Position numbers and translations under genes: made by a program. A stretch of 62,019 nucleotides of DNA, counting the filler. It is 7 parts of 7 records of this genome, joined end to end, with 100 filler letters (N's around TTAATTAATTAA, not from the genome) between each part and the next. Parts side by side here need not be neighbours in the genome. Positions count along the whole stretch, not along the records: positions 20,863 to 34,419 come from SRR20825010_6831; 6 more parts are not named here. One strand, 5' to 3'. This document shows, in pieces, positions 9,812-34,519 of the stretch. The notes under the pieces are model-generated. The model was given only the letters and a program-made list of their open reading frames with translations, did not search any database and had not been told where the DNA came from. The first letter of the stretch is position 1. Each line of letters opens with the position of its first letter.

Positions 9812-9868
9812 CGAAGATTTTCCTTTATTCTTGCCTGCTTGTCCGGATGCGCCCTAGGGCGCGAAACG

Positions 9869-9898
9869 GTTCTCCTGCCGACATTCCGGCAGGAGAAC
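9869..9898 (-). other. GC-rich hairpin after the binding-protein gene (mRNA stabiliser or partial terminator)
   Basis: GTTCTCCTGCCG-N6-CGGCAGGAGAAC perfect 12-bp stem. Confidence 0.6.
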
Positions 9899-9912
9899 GC
9901 AGTCCGACAGAC

Positions 9913-10947
9913 TTACTTGAGGCTGTCTTCGATCTTCGCCTTTGCCTCGGGCGAAACCCATTCACCCCAGACATCCGCCTTGGTTTTCAGGAATTCCTTC
10001 GCGGCAACATCGGCATCGACTTCATTGTCAACCATATAGGCAAGGCTGCCATTGACGTCTTCAAGCGGGAAGGTTGCCTTTTCAAGAATGGCTGCGATTT
10101 CCGGTGCTTCTTTGGCAAAGGTGCTGTTCACGCCATAGGCAACATCGACGCTAGGAAACGCGCAGGCTTCCTCGCGCTTGCCATCGGATTTCGAAAGTTC
10201 GGCCCAGCACGCATCGCTATAAGCCGGTTCATCAAGCTGGATCAGATTGAACTTGCCCATCATCGCGGTCGGCGACCAGTAATAGAACAGAAGCGGGTCG
10301 CCCTGCAGATATGCCGACTTGATCGCCGCGTCGAGTGCGGTACCCGTGCCCGGACGGAAGTTCACGTAATGATCGTCAAGCTGATAGGCTTCGAGCTTTG
10401 CGGTACTGATCCCTTCGCAGGTCCAGCCGGATGGGCAGTTCAGGAAACGGCCCTTGGACGGTTCTTCCGGATCGGTGAACAGTTCGACATATTTCGGATC
10501 GGAAAGCTGGCTCACACTTTTCAGGTCAGGTGCCATCGGCTCGATGCCGCGCTTTTCGTCACCCTTGATCACGTAATCAGGCACGAACCAGCCTTCACTG
10601 GCGCCGACAAAGGTTTTGCCAATGGCAACGACCTTGCCCTGATCAACGGCCTTGTTCCAGATGTCGCTGCGGCCAAGCCATTCTTCGGCAAAAATCTGAA
10701 TGTCGTTATTGGCAACCGCCTGTTCGAGCGTGATCGAATTGCCCGGAATGGAATCCACCTGGCAATCGTAGCCGGTCTCAAGGATGTTCATTATCACTTC
10801 GGTAATGAATGCCCCGCTTTCCCAGCTGATACCGGCAAATTTCACGGTATTGCCGTCACTGCAATAGGATGCGCTTGCACCCGTCGTCGAAAGACCAAGT
10901 GCAACAATTGCAGCAAGGCCCGTGGTTTTAATGTGTTTCATAGACAT
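9913..10947 (-). CDS. ABC substrate-binding protein (ProX/HutX, betaine-binding family)
   Basis: Signal peptide MSMKHIK...GASA with RBS GAGGGG; WESG, EGWFVPDYV, CPSGWTC, YYWSP. Confidence 0.9.
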   Translation of the reverse strand: MSMKHIKTTGLAAIVALGLSTTGASASYCSDGNTVKFAGISWESGAFITEVIMNILETGYDCQVDSIPGNSITLEQAVANNDIQIFAEEWLGRSDIWNKAVDQGKVVAIGKTFVGASEGWFVPDYVIKGDEKRGIEPMAPDLKSVSQLSDPKYVELFTDPEEPSKGRFLNCPSGWTCEGISTAKLEAYQLDDHYVNFRPGTGTALDAAIKSAYLQGDPLLFYYWSPTAMMGKFNLIQLDEPAYSDACWAELSKSDGKREEACAFPSVDVAYGVNSTFAKEAPEIAAILEKATFPLEDVNGSLAYMVDNEVDADVAAKEFLKTKADVWGEWVSPEAKAKIEDSLK

Positions 10948-20336: not shown

Positions 20337-20762
20337 ATGGGAAATTATAAAAAAGCATATATAGCTGGCGGGTGTTTTTGGGGAATGGAAGATTTATTTA
20401 GAGTTCGTCCAGGAATTATTGACACCGAAGTAGGTTATTTAGGCGGAGAAAACGATAATCCTACATACGGAAACCATCCAGGTCATGCTGAAGGTATTGA
20501 AATTACTTATAAGCCTGATGAAACTTCATTTAAGCATATTTTGGATTATTTTTTTAGAATTCATGACCCTTCAACTGTTGATAGACAAGGGAACGACAGG
20601 GGTTCAAGCTATAGGTCTGCCATATTTTTTCAAAATGAAGAAGAGAAAAAAGTAGCGCAAGAAATTATACAAATAGTAGACGATTCTAAAAAATGGCAAG
20701 CTAAAATAGTTACAACACTGGAGCCTTTTACAAAATTTTGGGCGGCAGAACCTGAGCATCAA
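20337..20762 (+). CDS. msrA: Peptide-methionine (S)-S-oxide reductase, cut at contig end
   Basis: GGCFWG, GHAE, RQGNDRGSSYRSAIF, AEPEHQ. Confidence 0.95.
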
Positions 20763-20862
20763 NNNNNNNNNNNNNNNNNNNNNNNNNNNNNNNNNNNNNN
20801 NNNNNNTTAATTAATTAANNNNNNNNNNNNNNNNNNNNNNNNNNNNNNNNNNNNNNNNNNNN
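20763..20862. other. Artificial contig spacer
   Basis: N44-TTAATTAATTAA-N44. Confidence 0.99.
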
Positions 20863-21027
20863 TTTAAATATACTACTTATTCTATTTGTTTTATTAGTAA
20901 AGATAGTAGAAAATCCTCAAACAGCATTGGTAAGATACCAGATTCCATTGGTAACATACAAGCTTTTTAGGTTCGGCACACAAGAAAGACTTCTTTCCTT
21001 TATACAAGTTAACCGAAAAAACAAATC

Positions 21028-21333
21028 ATGGCAATTCAGTTCAATTCTATCAATTACATTCATAATAATACAATATCTGGAGGGAGTATGATCTCTTATG
21101 AGTCAGGGCAGGAGTGGCTAATACTATTAAGAAGATTCATTCAGGAACAAGACAAAAGAAATCAAGCAATCCATGCATTATTACAAACCTTAATGGAAAT
21201 GGAAGCAACAAAGAAAGCAGACATCCTTCCTGAAATTATGGAGTTGCTGAAAGCTAACGTAAAGTATCTTGATATTTTTAAAGAAGTCATCGAAAAAGAT
21301 GGGCAGAATGGACGTGATGAAGACAACCAATAA
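21028..21333 (+). CDS. Hypothetical helical/coiled-coil protein
   Basis: 101-aa ORF with an A-rich leader typical of Bacteroidetes. Confidence 0.6.
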   Translation: MAIQFNSINYIHNNTISGGSMISYESGQEWLILLRRFIQEQDKRNQAIHALLQTLMEMEATKKADILPEIMELLKANVKYLDIFKEVIEKDGQNGRDEDNQ

Positions 21334-21363
21334 TTTTTAAAACAATAATTAAACGTTACAATT

Positions 21364-21657
21364 ATGGAAAATGCTTATTTAAAAAATCCGGAAGATGAGT
21401 GCCCCATTGATGTCAGGAAAAACAGGTTTAAAGCATCGTTTTTGGAATTTAAGGGTTATTTAGATTTGCTTATTACTATTGAGGCATTGATAAATGGTTG
21501 CATTATGGCAACTCAGGGAGATCATTATAGCCAATCTTCTGTCGATAATTCAGGCAGTGATATTCGAAAGACATTAGAGTTTGTTAGACAACTTTTGCCG
21601 ATAGAGGAAGGGGAGTATTTGGATGAATGTTATAACCTTTTGATAAAAGAACCATAA
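21364..21657 (+). CDS. Hypothetical protein
   Basis: 97-aa ORF co-oriented with its neighbours. Confidence 0.65.
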   Translation: MENAYLKNPEDECPIDVRKNRFKASFLEFKGYLDLLITIEALINGCIMATQGDHYSQSSVDNSGSDIRKTLEFVRQLLPIEEGEYLDECYNLLIKEP

Positions 21658-21669
21658 AATGTCATTTGA

Positions 21670-21804
21670 ATGAACAACACAGTTGGAAATAACCTCCGAA
21701 CACTCCACAAAAGGAAAGGGCTGACCCAAGAAGAGGTGGCAGATATGTTGCATGTCTCGCAATCTGCATACGCCCGGATGGAAAACGGTCAAACCAACCT
21801 CTGA
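21670..21804 (+). pseudogene. Truncated XRE/HTH_3 regulator
   Basis: MNNTVGNNLRTLHKRKGLTQEEVADMLHVSQSAYARMENGQTNL*; stops right after the recognition helix. Confidence 0.75.
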
Positions 21805-21858
21805 ATATTTCGGTTCTTCAGCAGAATATGCACTTCAAGTATAAAGTTGTACCAAATT

Positions 21859-21887
21859 GGGTTACCTTTTAGGCTTTACTCTATTAA
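21859..21887 (+). promoter_or_regulatory. Bipartite motif copy 1 (putative ECF promoter)
   Basis: GGGTTACC-TTTTAGGCTTTACT-CTATTAA, 18 nt before ATG 21906. Confidence 0.75.
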
Positions 21888-21905
21888 CACATAAACTTAA
21901 AGAGA

Positions 21906-22106
21906 ATGAAAGAGTTATTTAACATTTGTGTAGACATCCTTAAAGATTTGTCCGGTTACTTTGATATTAGCTATGAAGTCATTAATATTTTATTGTTTGT
22001 AATTATTCATCCTTTAATTACCGCTATTCTTTTATTTATGGTTATAAATTTATTGAGAAAGAATAGAAGATATAGACACCCACTAAGCGATAAAAATCTC
22101 AGCTGA
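21906..22106 (+). CDS. Small membrane protein (66 aa)
   Basis: ISYEVINILLFVIIHP hydrophobic helix with a basic tail; preceded by motif copy 1. Confidence 0.75.
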   Translation: MKELFNICVDILKDLSGYFDISYEVINILLFVIIHPLITAILLFMVINLLRKNRRYRHPLSDKNLS

Positions 22107-22136
22107 ATTTATAGTGAAAAGATTACTATTTGCTTT

Positions 22137-22754
22137 TTAATGTTCCTTAATCTGTTCCCAGTTCAAAATGCTTTTTATACGACTTATGCATTGTGCAAAT
22201 GTTGGTCTATGCTGTTTTATATGAGACTGAATATTATTCTCGAGCTTTATTATATCAAATTTATATCCACCTTGAATTTCTACTAAATAGTTTCTTGGAT
22301 CAATTTCGAAAAGAGATTTCGATAAGCTGTCCCCTTCTTTTAAATTACCATAATATTCAACAGTTAAATATGCTAAAAGGTCTCGTTTAGTTTTACTTTC
22401 AATCTTGAACATTCTTAAACATTCGGCAAAATCTAAATAGTCCTGACATCCCTTAAAATCAGATGACTGGTTAAAACACATGTTTATATTAGTATCCTGA
22501 TATATAGTCTGGAAATAACATCCATAAATTAGACTACACAATCTTTCTGGCATATTTTTTAGAGGTGTATCCGCTTTACCTAAAGGGATCTTCCTTTTAG
22601 TTTGACCTTCATAATCTACTTCATTAGTATATTTCTGAATTAACAGAACCTCTTCAATTTCAAAGATATTATATAGTTCATTTATCAATTTGTTAGCTAC
22701 AAAATGACCAAGTTCATGAAAAAATACGGTTTCAAGATTTTTGTTTTTTGGCAT
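22137..22754 (-). CDS. Putative standalone HExxH metallopeptidase (M41/M50-like)
   Basis: VFFHELGHFVA near the N-terminus; later GCQD resembles the M41 third-ligand region. Confidence 0.65.
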   Translation of the reverse strand: MPKNKNLETVFFHELGHFVANKLINELYNIFEIEEVLLIQKYTNEVDYEGQTKRKIPLGKADTPLKNMPERLCSLIYGCYFQTIYQDTNINMCFNQSSDFKGCQDYLDFAECLRMFKIESKTKRDLLAYLTVEYYGNLKEGDSLSKSLFEIDPRNYLVEIQGGYKFDIIKLENNIQSHIKQHRPTFAQCISRIKSILNWEQIKEH

Positions 22755-22784
22755 AAATGCAAGAGAGATAATTGGTTATTGGGT

Positions 22785-23972
22785 TTACAAACTGGAATAA
22801 GTTTTAACTATTCTAATGTAATCATTATTCAAAAGTTTAAACATACTGTTAGGCTCAGACATTCTAGAAGACACTATTAGCTTAGAAGCCTTAATTAGTG
22901 TTATTTTTCCTTTGTCAGTTACAGTAATTAAAATTTCATTTTCATCATTTATAAAAACAACATTATCAGGAATAAATTGATGGTTTTCACCCAAACTAAT
23001 TTTAATGCCTTTTCCTCCAAAAACTGTAAATCGAAAATCTATAACAGGTATTAACTTGTAATGTGCACTTTGACTATCCAAAAAGAACACTAAGCCTCCA
23101 CTATTGTTAATGCTTGTAATCGAGGTTAAGCAATCACCTTCTGATAGCTCTATTAGTCTTTTATAATCAATTTTATCACGTGCACTTCTAATAACTCTTC
23201 CTTTATTTGTTACAATGATAATTTCTGAATTGGGAGGATTAAGTATCCCAGTTACAACAGCATCATTATTCAGATGATCTAAAATTTTAGTGCTTCCATG
23301 CTGTTCATAAATATGAGATATTAAGCTAAGTACTTGGGTTAAATTCTTTTTTTGAGCTACGGCCGTTTTTGTTACTATCACTAAACTAACGCCAGTTCTG
23401 TCAAACTTCTTGTTTATTGAATAGACCTTTAATATTTTTTTTCCTTTGAGCGGAATTCTTTTTTGTTTATAAAATCTATTTACTAAATCTCTTACATTAA
23501 CCTTAAACACAGACTCATCATCAAGTACCATTAATACATTTGAATCTATTTCAGTAACTACAAAATCGGCAAAACGTTTTCTTTCTATATTAAGATTTCT
23601 TAATGCATCTAATAAATCTTCTTTATTTTCTACCCCTAAAGCTTTGTATCCACCACTCTTAGTTATAAAAAATAAAAAAACAGAATATTTAAATAAATTG
23701 ACTTGATTGCTTACAAAGTATCTTTCCTCTACTTCAGGGATAAGTATAGAGTCTATACTTTTTTCTTTATCAACATATTTCTTTTTACTATTTTTTTTAT
23801 TATAAGTTTTAGCTTTATTCTCTAAATAATCCTTACATATGATTATGACAAATACAGCCAATATAAGCATTGGTATAAACCATAAACCTTTATCAATCAA
23901 TAATACCATCCAACCCAAAAATGTTATCAACATCATCCATAATGGCGGAGAATATGATTTTTTAGCTGCCAT
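22785..23972 (-). CDS. Membrane-anchored protein with GyrA/ParC C-terminal beta-pinwheel-like repeats
   Basis: Two N-terminal TM helices; blades LVIVTKTAVAQK, IIIVTNKGRVIR..LSEGDCL, GGKGIKI, ILITVTDKGKITLI..LLNNDYI. Confidence 0.6.
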   Translation of the reverse strand: MAAKKSYSPPLWMMLITFLGWMVLLIDKGLWFIPMLILAVFVIIICKDYLENKAKTYNKKNSKKKYVDKEKSIDSILIPEVEERYFVSNQVNLFKYSVFLFFITKSGGYKALGVENKEDLLDALRNLNIERKRFADFVVTEIDSNVLMVLDDESVFKVNVRDLVNRFYKQKRIPLKGKKILKVYSINKKFDRTGVSLVIVTKTAVAQKKNLTQVLSLISHIYEQHGSTKILDHLNNDAVVTGILNPPNSEIIIVTNKGRVIRSARDKIDYKRLIELSEGDCLTSITSINNSGGLVFFLDSQSAHYKLIPVIDFRFTVFGGKGIKISLGENHQFIPDNVVFINDENEILITVTDKGKITLIKASKLIVSSRMSEPNSMFKLLNNDYIRIVKTYSSL

Positions 23973-23987
23973 ATATCATTTCTTTTA

Positions 23988-26900
23988 TTAATCTATAACC
24001 TGAAAACCAGCCCAATACACAGGATCGGGATAATTTATTTTTATTTCGTTTTGGGCTTTTTGTAAAGATTCATTCGCAGAATTACCTTTGAGGTAATGTT
24101 TATAGAATGCTACCATTAACTGGGATGTTTGTTCATCAGGAACTTTCCATAAGCTTATAATCATTGATTTAACTCCTGCTCGTTTAAATGCTCTTTGCAG
24201 ACCAAAAACTCCTTCTTGACCTTTTAGTTCGCCTAATCCTGTCTCACATGCCGATAAAACGAGCAAATCTATATTAGAGAAGTCTAAATAAGTGATTTCT
24301 TGACCTGTTAAAATGCCATCATTATTTTTATCATAACTTTTATCATGGTTTGCTCCTGCTAATAAAAGACCACACCTCATTAAAGGGTTGTCATAAACAT
24401 CCATATTTGCTCCTATTTTATTTACAATAGAGCTTCCAACAAGAAAACTCGAGTGATAATAATATCCATGTGTTGCTATATGAAGAACGTTTACATCCTG
24501 GTTTGGAATTACTCTCATTACAGATTCTGTTGCAGAATTTCCAGTATAAAGAAATGGTTCTTTGTATTCACTCTTATCAAATAATTCTTTGATTTTCACC
24601 ACTTCATCTAAAGTATATTTTAACTTGGAGAATGAACTACTGCGATTAATGTTTGATACAATATTTTCTTGTTCTTGAAGACCTGCAATGTTATTCGTAA
24701 CATTCTTTGATGTTAAATTATAATTGACTCCTCCAAATAATGCGGCTTTCATATTGTAATCCCTTTTTTTCTTATATCTAATGTTATTCGTGCTTGAAAC
24801 AATTGAAAAAGTACTTCCCATGTTTGCACTATCGAGAATAGCCGAATATGGGACTTTGTTCAATATACCTGTAGGTGAAAAATAATATTTATCATAATTA
24901 GCCATGTATTGTTTTAACGAATCGAAGATTATCTTATTAATCTTATGTTTGTTTTTACCAAACACCGCATTTATCCCATCCTTATTATTTGCTTGATCTA
25001 TATATTCATTTAGTATATTTTCATTAAATAGATAGACCAACTCAGGGGAGGTAGATTTATTATTTATAACAAGGGCATAATAGTCTATTTCATTTTCGTT
25101 ATTTTCAATTCCTTTTTTAATGGTAAAAGTTTCAATAGCTAATTCATCCATATTTAACCTATCTCTTATATTTTCCCAAGTGATTTGTCGTGGATTTACT
25201 GAGCGGAAATTATCCATGGACGTAATCTTTTTAATCAATTTCCGTTCTTTTTCAAGTATAATATTTAAGGAATCGCTATCAAATACACCTGAACTCCATT
25301 CCAAAGCTCTTCTCTTTAATTTTAATTCTTGATACTCCTTAAGTAGCCCCCCCTCCAATGTTTTCACGAAGCTTTTAAAATTCTGTTCAGATCGCAAGGC
25401 TATTTGTCGCATTGCCAGTAGATTGTTATATAAAAGCTCATTGGCCGATGAGTCTTTTAAGTCAACATAAATAGAATTAATTAAATTAAGATCTTTCTCT
25501 ACTTTTGTAACGAACAACTCCTTTTCTCCCTGGTTAAGAAATAAGAAATTGTTGATTAGCTTATGGTTAAGATTTTTTTCTATGCCTCTTAATGAAGATA
25601 TGATTTCTTCATGGTGTTGATTTTTGTCTTTTTTAAATAGTATGTTTTTAAGTAATACATCAAAGTATATTTCTTTATTATAATTAGACGAGTTTTTGAT
25701 TAAAGTTAAAGACTCCTTGTATATCTCTCTCGCTTTTTCTACCTCATCAATTTTTAAGTTAAAATCTGCTATTTGCATCAATATGGACACATAACTAATG
25801 CTATTAATACCATATTTATCCTCTATAATTCCCAGTAACGAATCATATACCTGGATAGCTTCATTAAGGTAATCCTCTCTTTCATCTATTTTCTTACCCA
25901 TGATTCTATCAAAAATTGATTTATCAAGTAGCTCTTCATTACCTCCACCTTTTTGCCATGCCAAAAAACAATAATGGGCCTTTGCATAAAGATAATTTAT
26001 ATAGATAGGGTGACCTTCATTGCGTTCCGCAATTGAAGTAGCTTTTACCAAAAGTCTCCCTGCACTATCAAAATTATCTATCAGAAGGTTACTAAGTGAG
26101 GCTGTCATTAAAAGACTGGCATAAGTTTTCGATTTCTGATTGCCTCCTTTTTCAATATATAGATTAAGGATGTTTGAGCATACAGCTTGAAATCTTCTAT
26201 AATCACCCACTCTTAATAGTCTGTCGGCGAATAACAATTGAGAATTTATCAAATAGGTTAAATCTTGTTTGCTACATGTTGCGAGCACATTTGTCAACTC
26301 TGAAAAAATATCATCAGCCTTAAAGTAATCACCTTCTCTTAATTTCAGTTCGCCAAGCGAAAGCAAAGGAAACAACAATAAATTATCCTTCTGTGAATCA
26401 ATAAGTTTATTATTTGCGATATTGATTGCTTCTTTAAACACTTTTTCAGCCTCATTTTGTGAATTGAAATATTCTAAAAGACAGAATCCGTAATTAATAG
26501 TTGCCGAATATTGTTTAACGAGGTTTACCCTTTGATCAAATTTAGTTTTCGAATATAATTGTGTCAAAAAAAAGAAATTACTAATTCTACTTCTGTTTTT
26601 AATATTGTAATATTTGCTTTCTGCTATTTCAAACGCTTTTTTATACTCTCCTGAATCTATCAACTCCTCTGTTTCTTTTATATCTTCATATTTATCTGAT
26701 AGTATTTTTGCAAAATAGAGAGAAATACCTCCAGTAGAAAAGTAATTAAAAAGAAGAATACTTGCCATAAAAACTAATGTGCAGATCAATTTAAAAATAT
26801 CCTTCATTGAAGATTTCTTTTTAAAGAAGGATTTCAATCCAGATAAAAACCAAGTAAATATTACAATAAGTAAAAAAAGAAATACTAAAGCAAATACAAG

Positions 26901-27047
26901 CGTTCTTAGGAGTTCTGTAAAATATAAAAAACCAAAAAAGCCATCAGGAGAAGCAATATACCATGTTAAATGCAAAAAACTTATTATAATATAACCAAAT
27001 ATGATTAATAAAATATATCCAGAGATGTTTTCAACTACTTTTCTCAT
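23988..27047 (-). CDS. Membrane-anchored TPR-CHAT (caspase-like) protease
   Basis: About 3 N-terminal TM helices, TPR-like helical repeats, FSPTGILNKVPY, LHIATHGYY (His), LSACETG (Cys), ISLWKVPD, YWAGF. Confidence 0.92.
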   Translation of the reverse strand: MRKVVENISGYILLIIFGYIIISFLHLTWYIASPDGFFGFLYFTELLRTLVFALVFLFLLIVIFTWFLSGLKSFFKKKSSMKDIFKLICTLVFMASILLFNYFSTGGISLYFAKILSDKYEDIKETEELIDSGEYKKAFEIAESKYYNIKNRSRISNFFFLTQLYSKTKFDQRVNLVKQYSATINYGFCLLEYFNSQNEAEKVFKEAINIANNKLIDSQKDNLLLFPLLSLGELKLREGDYFKADDIFSELTNVLATCSKQDLTYLINSQLLFADRLLRVGDYRRFQAVCSNILNLYIEKGGNQKSKTYASLLMTASLSNLLIDNFDSAGRLLVKATSIAERNEGHPIYINYLYAKAHYCFLAWQKGGGNEELLDKSIFDRIMGKKIDEREDYLNEAIQVYDSLLGIIEDKYGINSISYVSILMQIADFNLKIDEVEKAREIYKESLTLIKNSSNYNKEIYFDVLLKNILFKKDKNQHHEEIISSLRGIEKNLNHKLINNFLFLNQGEKELFVTKVEKDLNLINSIYVDLKDSSANELLYNNLLAMRQIALRSEQNFKSFVKTLEGGLLKEYQELKLKRRALEWSSGVFDSDSLNIILEKERKLIKKITSMDNFRSVNPRQITWENIRDRLNMDELAIETFTIKKGIENNENEIDYYALVINNKSTSPELVYLFNENILNEYIDQANNKDGINAVFGKNKHKINKIIFDSLKQYMANYDKYYFSPTGILNKVPYSAILDSANMGSTFSIVSSTNNIRYKKKRDYNMKAALFGGVNYNLTSKNVTNNIAGLQEQENIVSNINRSSSFSKLKYTLDEVVKIKELFDKSEYKEPFLYTGNSATESVMRVIPNQDVNVLHIATHGYYYHSSFLVGSSIVNKIGANMDVYDNPLMRCGLLLAGANHDKSYDKNNDGILTGQEITYLDFSNIDLLVLSACETGLGELKGQEGVFGLQRAFKRAGVKSMIISLWKVPDEQTSQLMVAFYKHYLKGNSANESLQKAQNEIKINYPDPVYWAGFQVID

Positions 27048-27050
27048 TAT

Positions 27051-28223
27051 TTAAAACCATCGTAATTCTCCTAATATATCATCAGCTTCAGATGAAAACT
27101 TACTTGTTTGAATTAATTTTGAACTTAAAATCCCTTTAGCTTTTTTAAGTTCCCCTTTTTTAATGTAACCAAGGGCTAAGTAAAATTGAACTTCAATTTC
27201 AAACTTATAATAAGCTACATTAGTTAAATAATTAAAATTATTAATCGCCTTTTCAACTTCATTAGAATTTAGTTGGGCTAGGGCTAAATAGAAAAGAACT
27301 TGACGATTATCTTCCTTCGGATTTATTTCTGTCAAAACTAGCTTAGCATTAGTATATTCTCCTTTTTTTATTTCTTCTATAGCCTTAAAAATTGCAAGTG
27401 ATTGTTGTTTGGTATAACTTGTATCTCCCTTAATAACTGGTCTAAAAGGCTCAAAATCTCTCGAAATATTATTATTCAAAGAAAGGTTGAATTCTACTAC
27501 ATCTAATCCTCCAAATTGATCAATATCCTTAATGTTTGATAAATTGCTCTTATAATTATTAAAAATCATTTCATTTGATGATTTATGCGGTTGCCACACA
27601 ATAAATCCAATTACTATTGCAGCAGCGACACTAGAATATTTTAACCATAATGAAATAATCTTAGTTTCTTTTTTATTTTTAGCAGGCTTTTCAGCTGTTG
27701 GTTCAGCTCTTTTTTCTAAAATAACATCTTTTTTTACTTCCCTGTTCCATGTTTGTATTTTCTCCCTCAGGTCTTCCCGGGCTTTTTGTTTTACGGCATT
27801 TTCAATGTCCTTTTCACTGGGTTGAAACGTTACTCTTTGATATGCCAATGGCAGTTCTTCTTTAATCCTATTTCGTTCTGCCTTGGTAATGACATTTCTT
27901 AACGTTTTTAAATAATGTACCCGTTTAACGAAGTCTTGACTCTGCGTTAAAATTTCCGATGTTTTTGAAATGTTTCCAAGCACGTAATCTTCAGCCACCT
28001 CTTCAATGAAATTCCTGTACAGTTTAGGGAGTTGAAAAATGAGTTTTTCAGGATCATTCAATTCAAGCTTGTAAATTTCTGTGTACAATGGTTTTTGATT
28101 GCTTTTAAATACCACAAATCCATTAAGAACCTCATCCCAATTTACCCTTTCCAAATGCTCAGGTGGTATAGAATTGCTTAAAATATCTTTTATGATTCTT
28201 ATTCCTCTTTCCATTTTAGGCAT
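27051..28223 (-). CDS. Putative anti-sigma factor: cytoplasmic domain, one TM helix, C-terminal TPR
   Basis: WLKYSSVAAAIVIGFIVW TM; FYLALAQL and FYLALGYI TPR motifs; overlaps the sigma gene by 8 nt. Confidence 0.8.
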   Translation of the reverse strand: MPKMERGIRIIKDILSNSIPPEHLERVNWDEVLNGFVVFKSNQKPLYTEIYKLELNDPEKLIFQLPKLYRNFIEEVAEDYVLGNISKTSEILTQSQDFVKRVHYLKTLRNVITKAERNRIKEELPLAYQRVTFQPSEKDIENAVKQKAREDLREKIQTWNREVKKDVILEKRAEPTAEKPAKNKKETKIISLWLKYSSVAAAIVIGFIVWQPHKSSNEMIFNNYKSNLSNIKDIDQFGGLDVVEFNLSLNNNISRDFEPFRPVIKGDTSYTKQQSLAIFKAIEEIKKGEYTNAKLVLTEINPKEDNRQVLFYLALAQLNSNEVEKAINNFNYLTNVAYYKFEIEVQFYLALGYIKKGELKKAKGILSSKLIQTSKFSSEADDILGELRWF

Positions 28224-28818
28224 TTAAATAATTGAAAGCCAATTTTTCTAACCGTTTTTGGCATTTTGCCTTTTGGTTTTTTGCATTAGCCGGATTCGTA
28301 TATCCGAAAATCTCAGACAGCTCTTTCATAGATTTTTTGTGATACCAAAACAATGTAAGCAGCTCATAGCATTTTCCTCCGGCGTTTTTCATTTCGGTAA
28401 GGGCATTTTCCATAGCCTTAAATTGTTCTTCATTTTCGGCCTCCACATCAACCAGTGTATCCGTTACCGCACCATCAAATTGTAAATGCTCTCCATTATT
28501 GTCAAAATCTTCAAGGCTTATATTCTGTTTATTCTTTTTAAATCTATTTAATAGTTGAAACCTGCAAACAGAACTTAGATAAGTTTGAATGGATGCTGTA
28601 AGTTTAAAATTTCCTTCAAGGATTTTTTCATATAACACCATAACGGCATCGTTGAATACTTCGTCTAGGTCTGTATCAAAACTGTTATTTGAGCCTTTTA
28701 CCTTATGCATGAACATGATGCAGTAATCGTAGCATCGTTTATAAATGACCCCTAAATAATCTGAATCATCTTTAATCAATTCAATAAGTTCCTGATCTGA
28801 AATTTGGTGTATGTCCAT
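28216..28818 (-). CDS. ECF-type sigma-70 factor
   Basis: SDQELI, DEVFNDAVMVLYEK, TYLSSVCR (region 2), KSMKELSEIFGYTNPANAKNQKAKC (region 4). Confidence 0.92.
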   Translation of the reverse strand: MDIHQISDQELIELIKDDSDYLGVIYKRCYDYCIMFMHKVKGSNNSFDTDLDEVFNDAVMVLYEKILEGNFKLTASIQTYLSSVCRFQLLNRFKKNKQNISLEDFDNNGEHLQFDGAVTDTLVDVEAENEEQFKAMENALTEMKNAGGKCYELLTLFWYHKKSMKELSEIFGYTNPANAKNQKAKCQKRLEKLAFNYLNA

Positions 28819-28992
28819 TAGTTTATTTGTGATGGTTGTATTAGTTCTTCACAAAATAAACAAAATATTGCAAATTTTACATTTGATTTTCCACAAGTCG
28901 TTCAAACATAACCGGTCTCTTCATATTTGAAGAAGCCCGGCTTTGTTTATCATTACTGATAAATCTATGTTGTAGAATTATATTAGCACGTC

Positions 28993-29481
28993 TTATAGTC
29001 TTGTGTCATAATTGTACGTACTAACACGATTATCCTTACCGCCCAAAATTTGCCGAGTAAGTCGAACTTTTTCCATATAGGCTTTCGCAAACTTTACTGG
29101 GTCTACAATATTATTTGTTCGGTAGGTTGATGTATTTTTATAAGTCGATTTGCTCTCATCAGAAAGAGAGGGCATACTTGGAAGTGATAAAGCCGGCTGA
29201 TATATTCTACCTTGCCCTGTGTGAGGATAAGGGTTTGAGATAGTATTCCTTCTTGTATTAGAATATGATCCTTCTCTTGGTTTCGTGCCCGCTTTACCTG
29301 TATATGGATTTACATTGCCAACTGTACTCCAATTATCGTTTACGGTGTGGTTGGGAGCGGTTCTGTAATGTGGTTGAACATACGTTCCATTACTTTTGTA
29401 ATATCCTTTTACATATACTTGTTGTGAAAATCCGAAATAACCGGTTAATAAAAATACTGCGATAAATAATAAATTTTTCAT
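28993..29481 (-). CDS. Secreted protein with a VKGYYKSNGTYVQPHYRTAP / NWST-GNVNPYTG motif
   Basis: Signal peptide followed by a conserved basic motif and a low-complexity tail. Confidence 0.8.
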   Translation of the reverse strand: MKNLLFIAVFLLTGYFGFSQQVYVKGYYKSNGTYVQPHYRTAPNHTVNDNWSTVGNVNPYTGKAGTKPREGSYSNTRRNTISNPYPHTGQGRIYQPALSLPSMPSLSDESKSTYKNTSTYRTNNIVDPVKFAKAYMEKVRLTRQILGGKDNRVSTYNYDTRL

Positions 29482-29521
29482 GATACTAATTTTAAAATGT
29501 TTTACTGTTTTTTTACATCTG

Positions 29522-29550
29522 TTAATAGCTCTTTTTTGAAGAGGTAACCC
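29522..29550 (-). promoter_or_regulatory. Bipartite motif copy 2 (putative ECF promoter)
   Basis: Minus strand GGGTTACC-TCTTCAAAAAAGAG-CTATTAA, 40 nt before ATG 29481. Confidence 0.75.
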
Positions 29551-29551
29551 A

Positions 29552-29755
29552 CTAATTGCATGGTAATTTATATAATAGCTCTCCTTCTAATGTCACTATC
29601 TTATATGCAAGGAAATTTTTAGTCCCCCTAATGGCAGAAATTTGTTTTTTGGCATATTCAAGAGCTTTGGTTACGCTCAACATTAATGCTACATTTTCAG
29701 GATAATCGCATTGATAGTTTTGAAGATTATTATACGATTTCAATTTTACTTTCAT
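29552..29755 (-). CDS. Small hypothetical protein (67 aa)
   Basis: ORF preceded by motif copy 3 and an A-rich leader. Confidence 0.65.
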   Translation of the reverse strand: MKVKLKSYNNLQNYQCDYPENVALMLSVTKALEYAKKQISAIRGTKNFLAYKIVTLEGELLYKLPCN

Positions 29756-29801
29756 GTTTTTGGATTTTAAGTTTGTACTCGTTTAGTTTGTTTTTCAACT
29801 A

Positions 29802-29830
29802 TTAATAGCCATAACTTAAAAAGGTAACCC
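29802..29830 (-). promoter_or_regulatory. Bipartite motif copy 3 (putative ECF promoter)
   Basis: Minus strand GGGTTACC-TTTTTAAGTTATGG-CTATTAA, 46 nt before ATG 29755. Confidence 0.75.
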
Positions 29831-29851
29831 ACTATCTTCGTTTTTTTTAAG

Positions 29852-29882
29852 AAAAAGAAGACTGCTTATAAAAACAGTCTTC
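29852..29882 (-). terminator. Intrinsic terminator of the 32569-29937 operon
   Basis: GAAGACTG-N10-CAGTCTTC stem followed by TTTTT on the minus strand. Confidence 0.6.
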
Positions 29883-29936
29883 AAAAAACAAACATAAAAC
29901 CCTCAAACCTACGGGTATTGTTACAGATAAAATGAA

Positions 29937-30428
29937 TTAGTTCTTTTGATAAACATCAAGGTCTAATGAGCCTTCAACAAAACCTTTATAAATAAGGATC
30001 TCGAGATCTTCCGGTATAATTTTAATGATGAAATGATTTCCCTGCGGCTTTTTAATTATCTTCATTTCTACGCTTGCGTTACCTTGATCAGCATTATAAG
30101 AATTCCAATATTTCCAATAAAATGTTAATCTTTGATTGTTATATCCATCCCTATCATAGAAAGGAGTGTCCAAAGTAAGATTATAGATTATCCCATTACT
30201 ATATGAATCTGCTTTTGGCCAAACATTAGCAAAATAGATTTCTTTATCTCCCTTATATTGGTAAAAAGCAAGAAAAGCATTTTTTGACAAAAGTTGAGAG
30301 GTTATATCTTTTCCATCCATTGTAGCGTCCATAATTACAAACCTTCCCATTACATCAACATTGTCTTGTGCTGTGCCAAATAAGGCGGTAAGCAACACTA
30401 TTACAAATAGAATCCATGTTTTATTCAT
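29937..30428 (-). CDS. Secreted beta-rich hypothetical protein
   Basis: Signal peptide (..GTAQD); 163 aa. Confidence 0.8.
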   Translation of the reverse strand: MNKTWILFVIVLLTALFGTAQDNVDVMGRFVIMDATMDGKDITSQLLSKNAFLAFYQYKGDKEIYFANVWPKADSYSNGIIYNLTLDTPFYDRDGYNNQRLTFYWKYWNSYNADQGNASVEMKIIKKPQGNHFIIKIIPEDLEILIYKGFVEGSLDLDVYQKN

Positions 30429-30449
30429 GATTATACTGGCTTTAAGGTT

Positions 30450-31292
30450 TTACAACATACTTAAAAGCTTCGAACTCATTTGAGATTCAGAACCATCTAG
30501 AATAAATTTATAATCATCCGCGCCTGATTCTTTTAACCATTTATCCCAGAAATAGATAAGCTTTTGTGTTTGCAATACGTCTAGGTCATTTTTACTAGAA
30601 ATGCCAGAGATTATCCAATGAATGCCTTTAGGAAGTTTGATAGGGAATAGGCCATAATCACTACTTCTGGCTTTTTGTTTCCAATCAATACCGGTAATTT
30701 TGTTTAGAAATTGGGTGCTTGTATATCTGTTCTTTTGTTTCAGGACGTGCCCTCTATTTTCAAAATCAAAATATCCATCTGTTAGTATTATAACTGTATT
30801 ATCATATCCTTCCAGTTGTAAAGACTGTCCGTAATCATTCAAATAAGCCCACAAATCCACACCGAAATAGCCATTTCTTTTGTCACTGTAGTTTGCTTTA
30901 TCTCTTAATTCACTCAATGTTTTGGTAATGGAATTTGAAAATTCAACCATTTTATTATTCTTGTCCTTGATTGACATTTCATTAAGTTTTAATTGGAGCA
31001 TATTCTCAAAATAGTTAATGTCCAAAGGGCTATTTTTTTGAGGAACTATTTTTACACTAAATCGGTCTTTGGAAGTTAAGATTAAGCCTCTTCTGGCTTT
31101 AGCCTCAAATTTTTCAAATAATTGTTCTATTTGAGCTTGGTCTTTTTCCAATTGGTGTTCAGAAAGTATTCTATCACTTAGGTCTAATATTACGGTATAA
31201 TTGACCGGTTTTCTTATGGTTTGAGCCTGTGCATTTATTTTCAATGATGAGAATGCTATGAACAGAATACTAATAATAACTATATTTTTCAT
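30450..31292 (-). CDS. Secreted vWA-like protein
   Basis: Signal peptide; VILDLSDR (MIDAS-like DxS) and IILTDG. Confidence 0.7.
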   Translation of the reverse strand: MKNIVIISILFIAFSSLKINAQAQTIRKPVNYTVILDLSDRILSEHQLEKDQAQIEQLFEKFEAKARRGLILTSKDRFSVKIVPQKNSPLDINYFENMLQLKLNEMSIKDKNNKMVEFSNSITKTLSELRDKANYSDKRNGYFGVDLWAYLNDYGQSLQLEGYDNTVIILTDGYFDFENRGHVLKQKNRYTSTQFLNKITGIDWKQKARSSDYGLFPIKLPKGIHWIISGISSKNDLDVLQTQKLIYFWDKWLKESGADDYKFILDGSESQMSSKLLSML

Positions 31293-31318
31293 GATGTTTG
31301 TTTTTAATGGTTATTGTA

Positions 31319-32569
31319 TTAATTAAGGTTAGGGATTTGTTTAAAATGGGTCTCCATAAATTCTTTGTAAGCAGATTCGCATTCTACTTTTTTAACATCA
31401 AAGTCGGGAGAGCTGTTCAAGTATTGTCGCCAACCCATATAGAAGCTAGTTAAGCACTGTGATAGTAGATCAGGGTTAAGAACAGCTTTTTCCAAATCTT
31501 TCTTTAAGTTTTCAATTCTTCCAACCAACATACTGATCTGTGATTCCAATTGGATTACTTTTTCTTTAAGACCTTTTATTTCATCTTTTTGAGAACGAAT
31601 CTTACTTTTAAGATCTCTAATGACCAATTGAGCACAGGTTCCAGCATTTTTCTTATTCTTTTCCTTTATCATTAACTCATACATATATCCCCAAACTAAA
31701 TAGGCCAAAAAGCCAAATGTTAAGACCAAATAAAAATTAATACTGGTTAAAAAGAACCAATTTTCTTCGGCTACACCCGCCATGACTTTTAAATTGTAAA
31801 TACCTGAATCAATTTTGTATGCCAATAATGAATCCACTATTAAAGCACCGAGAATTGCAATCGCCTTCCACAGATTTTTACGTTTTCCTTCAAAAGTGTG
31901 GGGAATTAAACCAACGGCAAAAAAGAGAAATGACCCTAAATAGACAATAATAAGGGAGGGCGAAGGTGTGAGAATCCCTTTCATATCAAAAATTGAATCA
32001 AGGTATAGTATTATATCATCCCCTGCTGTAGCTAACAAACTATTAGCATTCCTAAAAAATGAAGCATAAATTGTTGACGCATAAAATAGAATAAGATAAA
32101 CAGAAAGTACTCCCACTAAAATACCATAGGTTGCTAATTTGATTGGTTGGTATCCTGTTTGAAGTTTTTTCTCTTCCAAGTCCAATTTTGTCTGATGGAT
32201 TTCATCGTTAAGCTCGTCTATTTTTTGGTTACATGAGGGAATATGGATTTCTATGGTAGTTTTCTTTTCACTTTCTAACTTTTCTTTTTCCTCATGCTTG
32301 CTGGTAATCTCTTCATGGGTTTTTTCTTTTCGGGTTTCGTGCTCCTTTTCATTGTATGTAGCATCAACTACATGCCCATCTTTAATCCATTTTAGATGCA
32401 TTTTCATGGAGGTAGCGTCTCCATTGTTCAAACCAGCTTTTTGAATTGCATAATCTGTAAAACTTTTTACACGTTCTACTTTCTTGAATGAGCCCTCAGT
32501 CTCATCTACTGAATTGCTTGTTTCTGTTAAAGTTTCCATTTTTCTGTTTAATGATTTTAAAAGTTTCAT
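31319..32569 (-). CDS. Multi-TM protein with two long coiled coils
   Basis: N-terminal coiled coil, about 4 TM helices, C-terminal coiled coil, FYMGW; start may be 32539. Confidence 0.82.
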   Translation of the reverse strand: MKLLKSLNRKMETLTETSNSVDETEGSFKKVERVKSFTDYAIQKAGLNNGDATSMKMHLKWIKDGHVVDATYNEKEHETRKEKTHEEITSKHEEKEKLESEKKTTIEIHIPSCNQKIDELNDEIHQTKLDLEEKKLQTGYQPIKLATYGILVGVLSVYLILFYASTIYASFFRNANSLLATAGDDIILYLDSIFDMKGILTPSPSLIIVYLGSFLFFAVGLIPHTFEGKRKNLWKAIAILGALIVDSLLAYKIDSGIYNLKVMAGVAEENWFFLTSINFYLVLTFGFLAYLVWGYMYELMIKEKNKKNAGTCAQLVIRDLKSKIRSQKDEIKGLKEKVIQLESQISMLVGRIENLKKDLEKAVLNPDLLSQCLTSFYMGWRQYLNSSPDFDVKKVECESAYKEFMETHFKQIPNLN

Positions 32570-32587
32570 GATGTTTTTGTTTTGCTC

Positions 32588-32616
32588 TTAATAGCGGGAA
32601 TGGAAAAAGGTAACCC
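32588..32616 (-). promoter_or_regulatory. Bipartite motif copy 4 (putative ECF promoter)
   Basis: Minus strand GGGTTACC-TTTTTCCATTCCCG-CTATTAA, 18 nt before ATG 32569. Confidence 0.75.
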
Positions 32617-32784
32617 TAACATGAATGTTTTTTAGCTTACTGAATTGATCTACTTATGAGAAAAAGAATATTTTTGTATTTCATTAATGTCTTTAATCAA
32701 TTATAATGTAAAGAGATACTTTTCTATATATGTGGACTTAGGAAAAGAAATGACAACTTATAAATAGAATAATTAACTGAATAA

Positions 32785-34287
32785 ATGAGTGAAAGACAAA
32801 ATATAGAATGGAAGAAAATTTGGCATGATGATTATCTTAAATGGGTCTGTGGGTTTGCGAATGCCATAGGAGGGGTTATTTATATCGGTAAAGATGATAA
32901 TGGAAATGTTGTGCATCTAGAAAACTATCAAGCCTTAATGGAATACATCCCTAACAAGATACGTAGTCTTATGGGGATTATTTGTGATGTTAATTTGTTG
33001 GAGGAAAATGCTAATAAATATATCGAGATAAAAGTCAATCCTTATTCTGTGCCAGTCTCATTAAGAGGAAGGTACTATTACCGTTCGGGGAGTGTAAAAT
33101 CTGAGCTTACTGGTATAGAGCTGAATGAATTTTTACTTAAAAAAGCCGGTAAAACATGGGATGATGTTGTAGAAGAAGGGGCAGGTATTCAAGATATTGA
33201 TGATGGTAGTATCAATCAATTTATTGAGGATAGTAGGGAAAAAGGTAGATTACCTGATACTACGGGATTAAGTTCTTTGCAAATATTAGATAAACTTCGT
33301 TTAACAGAAAAAGGTAAGCTAAAAAGAGCTGCATTAATTCTTTTTGGAAAAGATCCAAATCGTTTTTACCCAAATGTTATGGTAAAAATAGGACGTTTTG
33401 GGATAGACAGTTCTGATTTAAAGTTTCAGGAAGTTGTAGAGGGTAATTTAGTCCATTTGCTTAATGAAGTTCAGGTGCAGTTAAATTATAAGTTTTTAAC
33501 CCGTCCTGTTGATTTTGCAGGTTTGCATCGTATTGAAAAAGGAGAATACCCAGTGGCTGCCTTACGTGAAATGTTATTGAACGGTTTGGTTCATAAAACG
33601 TATATGGGGACATCGATTCAAATTAGGGTATATGATGATAAACTATCTATTTGGAATGAAGGAGTGCTGCCTCAAGGACTAGATTTAGAAAGTTTAAAAA
33701 GTGAACACAATTCAAGACCAAGAAATCCTAAAATTGCAGATTCTTGTTTTAAATCCGGTTATATAGATACTTGGGGGAGGGGGACTCTAAAAATTATCAA
33801 TTCATGTAAAGAAGCAGCACTTCCTGAACCCGAAATTATTGAGAAAGATGGGGGAGTACAAGTTACTTTGTTTAAAAAAAACCAAGAGAGTAGTCCAGTA
33901 AAAATTGAAAATAACTTATTAGAAATTCAAAGAGCTTTTGGAGCCATTTCAGACCGGATAAAACTTGGAGCAGATAAGAATAAAGAATTTCTACGGGAAC
34001 ATTTTGAGGTGATTGCAGAAGAGCTTCGAGAAAGCTTCAGGTTAACTTCAGGAAAGCTTCATGAAAGCTTCGGGTTAACTTCAGGAAAGTATATATCTAA
34101 TACTGCTTTAACATTAGAGTTAATAACTATAACTCCTGAGATTAAGGCAGAGGAGATAGGGGCAATCCTAGATGTTTCTGAGAGAACAGTACAAACCTAT
34201 CTTAAAAAATTAAAAGAGGATGATTTTATCGAAAGAATTGGCGGAAGGAAAGAAGGCTATTGGCAAATAATAAAACAAGATTCTTGA
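32785..34287 (+). CDS. AlbA_2 (Schlafen-like) + HATPase_c_4 + C-terminal HTH protein
   Basis: EWKK, GFANAIGGVIYIGKDDNG, YYRSGS, ALREMLLNGLVHK, PRNPKIA, C-terminal wHTH ..RIGGRKEGYW. Confidence 0.88.
   Translation: MSERQNIEWKKIWHDDYLKWVCGFANAIGGVIYIGKDDNGNVVHLENYQALMEYIPNKIRSLMGIICDVNLLEENANKYIEIKVNPYSVPVSLRGRYYYRSGSVKSELTGIELNEFLLKKAGKTWDDVVEEGAGIQDIDDGSINQFIEDSREKGRLPDTTGLSSLQILDKLRLTEKGKLKRAALILFGKDPNRFYPNVMVKIGRFGIDSSDLKFQEVVEGNLVHLLNEVQVQLNYKFLTRPVDFAGLHRIEKGEYPVAALREMLLNGLVHKTYMGTSIQIRVYDDKLSIWNEGVLPQGLDLESLKSEHNSRPRNPKIADSCFKSGYIDTWGRGTLKIINSCKEAALPEPEIIEKDGGVQVTLFKKNQESSPVKIENNLLEIQRAFGAISDRIKLGADKNKEFLREHFEVIAEELRESFRLTSGKLHESFGLTSGKYISNTALTLELITITPEIKAEEIGAILDVSERTVQTYLKKLKEDDFIERIGGRKEGYWQIIKQDS
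34022..34087 (+). repeat. In-frame 33-nt tandem repeat (x2)
   Basis: AGCTTCGAGAAAGCTTCAGGTTAACTTCAGGAA / AGCTTCATGAAAGCTTCGGGTTAACTTCAGGAA. Confidence 0.85.
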
Positions 34288-34353
34288 AATTAACTTTTTG
34301 AATTGATCCGAAATCAATCAAAATCTGTCACCTTTTTTGACACCCAAAAAATA

Positions 34354-34389
34354 AAAACCCCTGTAAAAACGATGTTTTACAGGGGTTTT
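34354..34389. terminator. Hairpin terminator between the tRNA and the island
   Basis: AAAACCCCTGTAAAA ... TTTTACAGGGGTTTT. Confidence 0.8.
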
Positions 34390-34391
34390 AA

Positions 34392-34419
34392 GTACTCGAG
34401 GCGGGACTTGAACCCGCAC
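34392..34419 (-). tRNA. 3' part of a tRNA (probably tRNA-Leu), cut at contig end
   Basis: Minus strand GTGCGGGTTCAAGTCCCGCCTCGAGTAC gives T-arm and acceptor stem; anticodon not present. Confidence 0.8.
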
Positions 34420-34519
34420 NNNNNNNNNNNNNNNNNNNNNNNNNNNNNNNNNNNNNNNNNNNNTTAATTAATTAANNNNNNNNNNNNNNNNNNNNNNNNN
34501 NNNNNNNNNNNNNNNNNNN
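34420..34519. other. Artificial contig spacer
   Basis: N44-TTAATTAATTAA-N44. Confidence 0.99.

Follow-up and report, generated by a model that had tools for sequence, protein, structure and literature searches.

The Motif and the Sigma Operon

The DNA analyzed here (the window; 62,019 nt) consists of contigs joined by runs of N around the spacer ttaattaattaa. The contig of interest, at positions 20863-34419, carries an operon encoding a divergent sigma factor of the extracytoplasmic function (ECF) type, a candidate anti-sigma factor and a predicted membrane protease with TPR and CHAT domains. Four copies of a bipartite sequence motif, GGGTTACCTTTT-N10-CTATTAA, are distributed on both sides of this operon (Table 1). 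A preliminary description of the locus, made by inspection of the sequence, had proposed that the four copies are the promoters recognized by this sigma factor and that they define a private regulon of six genes. We have followed up this proposal by comparing the locus with related loci and genomes.

Table 1. Features of the contig at 20863-34419, in window coordinates. ORF, open reading frame.
Feature	Position	Strand	Remarks
Motif copy 1	21859..21887	+	GGGTTACCTTTT-N10-CTATTAA; 0 mismatches; 18 nt upstream of the ATG of the 66-aa ORF
66-aa ORF, predicted target of copy 1	21906..22106	+	One hydrophobic helix; singleton; not conserved in other loci
205-aa ORF	22137..22754	-	Last gene on the strand of the sigma operon; no family found; singleton in clustering
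395-aa ORF	22785..23972	-	Downstream of the CHAT gene; weak, sub-threshold matches to gyrase C-terminal propeller repeats
Predicted membrane TPR-CHAT protease, 1019 aa	23988..27047	-	Three predicted N-terminal transmembrane helices, TPR region, CHAT domain
Candidate anti-sigma factor, 390 aa	27051..28223	-	Overlaps the stop of the sigma gene by 8 nt
Divergent ECF-type sigma factor, 200 aa	28216..28818	-	TIGR02937, fold search
Intergenic region 5' of the sigma gene	28819..28992	-	Hairpin (-18.3 kcal/mol), then TTATTTTGTG box; no motif copy
162-aa secreted protein, predicted target of copy 2	28993..29481	-	Signal peptide; S/T/Y-rich; upstream of sigma in 29/34 loci
Motif copy 2	29522..29550	-	0 mismatches; 40 nt upstream of the ATG of the 162-aa gene
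67-aa ORF, predicted target of copy 3	29552..29755	-	Not conserved
Motif copy 3	29802..29830	-	0 mismatches; 46 nt upstream of the ATG of the 67-aa ORF
Terminator-like hairpin with T tail	29857..29882	-	End of the 416/280/163 operon; just upstream of copy 3
163-aa secreted protein	29937..30428	-	Third gene of the predicted target operon; family in 13 loci
280-aa secreted protein	30450..31292	-	Second gene of the predicted target operon; vWA-like fold; family in 13 loci
416-aa membrane protein	31319..32569	-	First gene of the predicted target operon; family in 17 loci
Motif copy 4	32588..32616	-	0 mismatches; 18 nt upstream of the ATG of the 416-aa gene

A search of the window for GGGTTACC-N14-CTATTAA that tolerated two mismatches gave exactly four matches, all of them without a mismatch. 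The number expected from dinucleotide-preserving shuffles was 0.14, and none of 100 shuffles reached four. All four copies are intergenic, with copy 2 beginning 1 nt past the stop codon of the 67-aa ORF, and their spacers open with a T tract (TTTT, TCTT, TTTT and TTTT in copies 1 to 4). A looser pattern, GGTTACY-N3-T-N11-TATWAA with two mismatches allowed, added only two poor matches in the window, within what is expected by chance. The preliminary description is borne out on the coordinates and strands of the four copies, on the T tract, on the terminator directly ahead of copy 3 and on the lack of the motif in the other contigs of the window. The gaps that it gave to the start codons (18, 40, 46 and 18 nt) and the intergenic placement agree with the sequence and the ORF list.

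The nearest complete genome (G001; 4.5 Mb, 99% complete) contains the contig 20863-34419 at 100% identity, save for ≈1.3 kb of extra sequence in the genome. When up to one mismatch was allowed, the four copies of the island were the sole matches genome-wide, and all four lie within ≈11 kb around the sigma operon. A pattern loosened to 13 positions gave six matches, comprising the four island copies and two that lack the T tract, while the reversed control gave seven. The motif is non-random and confined to one locus within the genome.

Co-Occurrence of the Motif and the Sigma Factor

To extend the comparison, 34 loci were fetched by homology to the sigma factor (49–100% identity; 565,360 bp in total), from records titled Flavobacterium, Bizionia, Winogradskyella, metagenome bins and Galbibacter orientalis DSM 19592 (100% identity). 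The exact pattern GGTTACCTTTT-N11-TATTAA was present in 59 copies in 29 of the 34 loci. With a broader pattern, GGTTACCTTTT-N11-TATWAA, which also took in TATAAA and TATCAA, there were 87 copies, with at least one in every locus, and none in the reversed control. All but two of the 87 are intergenic, and the start of an ORF on the same strand lies within 60 nt for 68 of them and within 150 nt for 79.

The information content of the 85 unique instances is concentrated in aGGGTTACCTTTTt, in a short T run in the middle of the spacer and in TATWAA, with an invariant spacing between the blocks. The conserved core is GGTTACCTTTT-N11-TATWAA. The preliminary description had considered both blocks invariant, which holds within the window but not among the relatives, where the leading G and the C before TATTAA vary. 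A strictly spaced pair of -35 and -10 blocks, here GGTTAC and TATWAA, is characteristic of ECF promoters. The distance from the motif to the ATG is 16–19 nt for the 416-aa family and 40–48 nt for the 162-aa family. At a distance of 16–19 nt, the motif itself must be the core promoter, leaving a leader of ≈10 nt.

Whole genomes gave a similar picture. Among 401 Flavobacteriaceae genomes, the exact pattern was found only in G001 (three matches, all in the island) and in G139 (one match), which has no sigma homologue; the reversed control matched 4 of the 401. The sigma factor (E ≤ 1e-30) was detected in four of 121 Flavobacterium genomes, and all four have the motif, with a total of six matches, each within ≈10 kb of the sigma gene. 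Three of the 117 Flavobacterium genomes without the sigma factor have the motif, once each, and the reversed control also gave three. In five genomes that have the sigma factor, all eight exact matches lie within ≈18 kb of the sigma gene. The fifth of these genomes (G434) has no exact match, and its locus has the TATAAA variant. Thirteen loci of unrelated ECF paralogues (27–34% identity) contained no copy of the motif.

The two scans suggested in the preliminary description, of islands with homologous sigma factors and of the host genome, gave the motif in 34 of 34 loci (broad pattern) and, in the nearest complete genome, at the island only. It had also named a motif that follows another regulator or a recombinase as the outcome that would speak against a role for the sigma factor. 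The only genes that consistently accompany the motif are those for the sigma factor (34/34) and the candidate anti-sigma factor (32/34); a gene for an AlbA_2 protein is present in 5/34 loci, and no recombinase is consistently present.

The Sigma Factor and Its Upstream Region

The protein encoded at 28216-28818 matches the NCBIfam model TIGR02937 (sigma70-ECF) over residues 25-192 with an E-value of 6.4e-13 and 48.7 bits (cut-off 42.9). An AlphaFold model, built with 24 homologues, has a predicted local distance difference test (pLDDT) score of 81.6 and consists of two helical domains joined by a linker. The best fold matches in the PDB were all ECF sigma factors: AlgU, sigma-E, SigH, SigW, CnrH and SigK. 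The sigma-2 domain superimposes on region 2 of E. coli sigma-E with a template modeling (TM) score of 0.72-0.74 and a root-mean-square deviation of ≈3 Å. The protein has the two-domain sigma-2/sigma-4 make-up of the ECF (group IV) members of the sigma-70 family. A sequence search of the PDB with the profile of the sigma family (E ≤ 0.001) gave no match. Homologues at E ≤ 1e-5 numbered 626. Among plasmids, there was one distant match (29% identity, on an Aureispira plasmid), and among phages there was none.

Across the 34 loci, the gap between the 162-aa gene and the sigma gene mostly contains a strong hairpin, of -12 to -22 kcal/mol. The hairpin is followed by a conserved box, TTAAATTGCTGCC or TTATTTTGTAAC, 20–45 nt before the sigma ATG, for which TTATTTTGTG is the counterpart in the window. 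We infer that this box is the operon's own promoter, of the housekeeping type found in Bacteroidota, an assignment that we make partly by assuming the general pattern of such promoters. Some read-through into the sigma operon from copy 2 is possible. A scan of 21500-33000 with a sigma-70-type consensus was uninformative, with 63 matches found vs. 57.8 expected, which is at chance level. In several loci (L031-L034, L038, L046, L050, L052 at ~9967), the word GGTTACC (GGTTACT in L052) directly abuts the sigma ATG (..GAGGTTACCATGGCAGAC..). No -10 partner goes with this -35 core word, which may stand there by coincidence.

A Sister Clade with the Same Motif

ECF promoters are usually predicted from a conserved bipartite motif 5' of the sigma factor's own gene. 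Such a motif was found in a sister clade, identified by a family-profile search of 401 genomes, phylum-wide. The sigma factor of this clade is 33% identical to that of the window, and it was present in all genomes sampled from three coded Bacteroidia families (21/21, 7/7 and 2/2). In 24 of 29 sister-clade loci, GGTTAC-N16/17-TATTAA lies 45–92 nt upstream of the sigma gene, on the same strand, which is the arrangement of an autoregulated ECF factor. Further copies precede one to three tandem genes for T/S/D-rich lipoproteins of ≈72 aa, each with its own motif and terminator. The partner protein in these loci has ≈365 aa and a C-terminal trypsin-like protease domain (L086 7130-8470; L057-L085). 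In five complete sister-clade genomes, five of the eight genome-wide matches to the motif adjoin the sigma gene.

The two clades have in common the sigma-4 segment GYTN..NAK.QK.KC..RL, which fits a shared -35 element. The notion of a private regulon therefore needs to be qualified: the motif is indeed confined to one locus within a genome, but the code itself is common to a wider family of sigma factors.

The Candidate Anti-Sigma Factor and the CHAT Protease

The gene that overlaps the end of the sigma gene encodes a protein with a conserved N-terminal domain of ≈165 residues, a hydrophobic helix at residues 189-207 and a C-terminal TPR domain. Hydropathy predicts a single transmembrane helix with the N-terminus inside. 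By ORF clustering, this family is present in 32 of the 34 sigma loci. A model of the complex between the sigma factor and residues 1-185 of this protein scored 0.65, a value attained by 51 of 78 solved complexes and by 2 of 108 mismatched pairs; the best control scored 0.00. The pLDDT of the partner was at least 47, and the agreement of contacts from run to run was at least 0%. In the model, the most conserved segment of the partner (residues 103-132) sits between the two sigma domains, and the interface touches both of them. The model thus supports, without proving, that the protein encoded at 27051-28223 binds the sigma factor.

The periplasmic domain of the candidate anti-sigma factor is of two kinds. 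The TPR kind is found in the window and in L024, L025 and L049, all of which lack a gene for a 380-aa M48-like/TPR protein, while the second kind accompanies that gene in most of its loci. This distribution suggests that the TPR domain and the 380-aa M48-like/TPR protein may be functionally interchangeable.

The next gene of the operon encodes the predicted protease, which is of the caspase-like CHAT (caspase HetF-associated with TPR) type. Its CHAT domain spans residues 703-1017 (Pfam E-value 1.5e-46) and includes the motifs HIATHG and LSACETG, which we take, from the pattern of the CHAT family, to be the His-Cys dyad. With this putative catalytic dyad, the protein has the sequence features of a CHAT peptidase. 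A sequence search of the PDB with the CHAT protein (E ≤ 0.01) gave no match. The family is present in 22 of the 34 loci, several of which stop at a contig end. By the positive-inside rule, the TPR-CHAT part of this protein and the TPR domain of the candidate anti-sigma factor would both face the periplasm.

PADLOC models (E ≤ 0.01) had no match among the sigma, anti-sigma, CHAT and target proteins, except for LmuB on the 416-aa protein. This was a weak coiled-coil match (0.0018) and was disregarded.

Predicted Target Genes

The number of genes given in the preliminary description for the window, six, agrees with our count: the 66-aa and 67-aa ORFs, the 162-aa gene and the three genes of the 416/280/163-aa operon. 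Most of the predicted target genes encode envelope proteins, which have signal peptides or lipoprotein boxes. In the 416-aa protein, four transmembrane helices are predicted, with coiled coils on either side. A model of the 280-aa protein (pLDDT 77, predicted TM score 0.80) had von Willebrand factor A (vWA) domains as all of its best fold matches in the PDB, with TM scores of 0.32-0.53.

The same arrangement recurs in other loci. A motif copy precedes the genes for the 416-aa, 280-aa and 163-aa proteins, and another precedes the 162-aa gene, with or without one small secreted protein. These are followed by the genes for the sigma factor, the anti-sigma factor, the 380-aa M48-like/TPR protein (in most loci, but absent in the window) and the TPR-CHAT protein. 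In other loci, the periphery has extra motif copies ahead of small genes that vary. One variant locus has a homologue of staphylococcal nuclease inside an operon headed by the motif. A family of 150-aa, cysteine-containing, cytoplasmic proteins has the motif upstream at L053 (~9532-10028) and L055 (3909-4406), both from Flavobacterium genomes without the sigma factor, and, in L024, L043 and L051, also occurs at the cassette's edge.

Assignment of the Motif to the Sigma Factor

On these sequence data, we consider it likely, with a probability of ≈0.85, that the four motif copies are promoters read by the sigma factor encoded at 28216-28818. The proposal made in the preliminary description is supported by the co-occurrence of motif and sigma factor, by the geometry of the motif relative to start codons and by the sister clade; this support is comparative rather than experimental.

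Several points weigh against the assignment. A Pfam scan at E ≤ 0.01 gave no match for the sigma protein, including to Sigma70_r2 and Sigma70_r4, and the whole-chain E-values of the fold search were weak, at 2e-3 and above. The partner's own fold was uncertain in two of the three runs of the complex model. The region 28819-28992 has no motif copy, and the autoregulation that is a hallmark of ECF factors is not seen in the island clade. The elements GGTTAC and TATTAA are unlike the AAC and CGT-type elements typical of ECF promoters. Because the loci were chosen by their sigma factor, the count of 34/34 is circular when taken alone, and the genome-wide scans constitute the independent part of the evidence; moreover, related genomes are non-independent samples. 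Two Flavobacterium genomes (G442 and G484) have the motif before a 150-aa gene and have no sigma homologue at E ≤ 1e-6, and in a third genome (G487), a single copy precedes a 74-aa ORF. The copies in G442 and G484 may be remnants, or a sign of another reader. Finally, a contig from one of the sequencing runs that we compared (X3; 10,884 nt, ≈92% identical) matches the window exactly between the outer edges of copies 1 and 4 (21858-32616), with flanks that are unlike. Such limits would fit the boundary of a cassette, and they would also be compatible with constraint on the promoter only.

Could the motif be a promoter that is read by another sigma factor, such as an alternative sigma factor encoded on the host chromosome? 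The copies in G442, G484 and G487, all of which lack this sigma factor, would be explained in this way, as would the fact that the island sigma gene has no motif before it. However, a host sigma factor should have sites throughout the genome, whereas G001 has the four island copies only, and the eight exact matches in the five sigma-holding genomes all lie close to the sigma gene. Furthermore, the 117 Flavobacterium genomes without the sigma factor are at the level of the control (3 vs. 3), and the sister clade has the motif directly in front of its own sigma gene in most loci. We therefore regard a different sigma factor as an improbable reader.

Marginally less probable again is that the motif is an operator or activator site for a regulator other than a sigma factor. 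One candidate is the AlbA_2/helix-turn-helix protein encoded at 32785-34287, divergently from copy 4. This family accompanies the motif in only 5 of the 34 loci, however, while the sigma factor and its candidate anti-sigma factor do so consistently. In addition, the motif is asymmetric and always directed toward a gene, and it ends 16–19 nt before the ATG of the 416-aa family, where it occupies the -35/-10 region.

It is highly improbable that the copies serve a mobile cassette as its ends or recombination sites (terminal inverted repeats) and not as promoters: copies 1 and 4 are mutually inverted, the X3 match ends exactly at their outer edges, and the loci lie among mobile and defense genes (integrase, HipA, type I restriction-modification, Zeta toxin), but the outermost copies elsewhere often have the same orientation (L023, L034, L039, L046), the loci have one to five copies, each before a gene, including the internal copies 2 and 3 that have no role as ends, the distances to the start codons are conserved, no recombinase is consistently present, and the X3 boundary is also expected if constraint acts on the promoter but does not extend to the DNA upstream.

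If the motif is indeed the promoter of this sigma factor, GGTTACC and the T tract would form the -35 element, and TATTAA, 16 nt after GGTTAC, the -10 element. The sigma factor, the anti-sigma factor and the TPR-CHAT protease would be made constitutively from an operon with a different promoter, probably of the housekeeping type. In the resting state, the cytoplasmic N-terminal domain of the anti-sigma factor would hold the sigma factor. A signal in the envelope could then lead to proteolysis of the anti-sigma factor, most likely through the CHAT protease, with or without a subsequent cleavage within the membrane, and the sigma factor thus freed would transcribe the six neighboring genes only. 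The role of the CHAT protease, the reading of the motif by the sigma factor, the nature of the signal and the functions of the targets are all inferred.

A more far-reaching reading, which we put forward tentatively and hold to be rather doubtful as a whole, is that the locus is a self-contained, horizontally moving cassette, in which a CRISPR-independent membrane TPR-CHAT protease frees a private sigma factor from a split anti-sigma factor. It would then represent a new protease-to-sigma defense or conflict system of Flavobacteriia. In this reading, GGTTAC-N16-TATTAA would be the shared code of an uncharacterized, Bacteroidia-wide sigma family, and the sigma factor would turn on only the cassette's own envelope effectors, via a code that the host otherwise leaves unused. 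The partners of the sigma factors would be proteases that differ in class between the island clade (CHAT) and the core clade (trypsin-like).

Island Context and Sequence Variants

The neighbors of the sigma loci include HipA, type I restriction-modification systems, Zeta toxin, PBECR3 and DUF1016 nucleases, integrases and AlbA_2 proteins. By guilt by association, a role of the cassette in defense or conflict is plausible but unproven.

The joins next to the contig lie at 20780-20862 and 34420-34519, and ORFs that span joins, such as 20337-20810, run into N. Genes for SelO, MsrA and a Na/H exchanger that appear as flanking genes belong to other contigs of the window, and their counterparts in G001 are ≈70% identical or absent. 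The end of the contig (34380-34419) lies inside the tRNA-Leu(taa) gene of L019 (2861-3104), beside tRNA-Gly. The island adjoins a tRNA pair, a kind of site at which integration is common. Near the other end, from our reading of the sequence, a short ORF at 21669-21803 looks like the beginning of an XRE-type helix-turn-helix protein that then breaks off. It could be what is left of a gene at the island's edge.

The ≈1.3 kb of extra sequence in G001 (locus L019, 4933-6111) carries a 392-aa ORF and lies between the AlbA_2 gene and copy 4; it is absent in the window (at 32686-32694). It is probably an insertion in that strain. In the X3 contig, a stretch of 86 nt takes the place of 29513-29882, which comprises the 67-aa ORF and copy 3, and one of 268 nt that of 28875-29262. 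As the X3 contig is without the 67-aa ORF and copy 3, the two appear to have been added recently.

The three sequencing runs that were compared consist of contigs only, which cannot show transcription starts. Contigs of run X1 that are 100% identical to the window cover 23422-23586, 24764-25605, 27745-28147, 28336-28688 and 33854-34275. The genes touched are those for the 395-aa, CHAT, anti-sigma, sigma and AlbA_2 proteins, and wherever the tails reveal an orientation, it is sense. From loose ends consisting of template-switch oligonucleotide and poly-A/T, X1 looks like cDNA, and its contigs hint that the sigma operon is transcribed. There was no X1 contig on the six predicted target genes, where missing cover counts as no evidence.

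Significance

Bacteroidota encode many ECF sigma factors, of which, to our knowledge, few have defined promoters. The pattern GGTTACCTTTT-N11-TATWAA is a testable promoter code for a divergent sigma family, this member of which is missed by Pfam. With its very small, local regulon, the sigma factor and its presumed promoter are a candidate for an orthogonal expression switch in Flavobacteriia. The defense and mobile genes in the neighborhood suggest, again by association only, a protease-triggered transcriptional response to attack.

Comparison with Known Systems

Literature on ECF sigma factors with CHAT, anti-sigma or trypsin-like partners and with GGTTAC promoters was searched, and neither the motif nor the architecture was found described. 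The main text of the ECF re-classification (PMC7826278) makes no mention of CHAT, caspase, trypsin or peptidase; its supplements, with groups and predicted motifs, may contain this sigma family.

The pathway proposed here resembles that of E. coli sigma-E, RseA, DegS and RseP in having a two-domain sigma factor, a single-pass anti-sigma factor and a proteolytic release that would be initiated from the periplasm. Sigma-E and AlgU were at the top of the fold search. The proposed -35 element with its T tract also resembles the sigma-E site, GGAACTT. Unlike DegS, the protease in the window has a CHAT cysteine protease domain, while the sister clade has a trypsin-like domain. The -10 element differs as well, being TATTAA, and the predicted regulon comprises a few adjacent genes, whereas the stress regulon of sigma-E is genome-wide.

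In the type III-E Craspase, as described in the available text of PMC10028731, the Cas7-11-Csx29 complex, of which Csx29 is a TPR-CHAT protein, cleaves Csx30, by which CASP-sigma is inhibited, and motifs bound by the sigma factor are found in the same locus. Both systems link a TPR-CHAT protease genetically to an ECF-like sigma factor and a sigma-binding inhibitor (a candidate in our case), with sigma motifs inside the same locus (predicted in the window). Scans of window ORFs with Pfam, NCBIfam and PADLOC, which did not include a search for CRISPR arrays, gave neither a Cas7-11 (gRAMP) effector beside the TPR-CHAT and sigma genes nor any other CRISPR component. Unlike the parts of Craspase, which are cytoplasmic and triggered by target RNA, those in the window are predicted membrane proteins.

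The closest parallel is with DdvS and DdvA of Myxococcus xanthus, where an ECF sigma factor is paired with a transmembrane anti-sigma factor fused to a periplasmic TPR-CHAT part, and acts on four local promoters. In the available portions of PMC11506125 and PMC6061681, DdvA-like proteins are reported only from Myxococcota and one Comamonas, and the active site of DdvA is described as incomplete. The system in the window is like this one in its ECF sigma factor and single-pass membrane anti-sigma candidate, in its TPR-CHAT module in the envelope, and in its tiny local regulon, with four predicted promoters beside the sigma operon and a setting in a defense island. As in the DdvA type, the predicted regulon is confined to promoters around the operon in G001 and in the other sigma-holding genomes. 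However, DdvA is a single protein with a zinc-binding anti-sigma domain, a transmembrane helix and a periplasmic TPR-CHAT part, whereas the corresponding functions in the window appear to be divided between two genes, one for the anti-sigma candidate, which has 390 aa and a TPR domain of its own, and one for the TPR-CHAT protein, which has 1019 aa and three predicted transmembrane helices. The N-terminal domain of the anti-sigma candidate has no cysteine and hence cannot form the CHCC zinc site of DdvA. Other differences, within what these sources describe, are that the His and Cys motifs of the CHAT domain are both present in the window protease, that the window sigma operon has no motif copy, unlike the DdvS-dependent PddvSA promoter, and that the predicted targets are envelope proteins rather than CBASS and CRISPR systems. 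The pairing of a sigma factor with a membrane TPR-CHAT protein in the window thus extends the theme of DdvA/DdvS and Craspase/CASP-sigma to a split, CRISPR-free form in another phylum.

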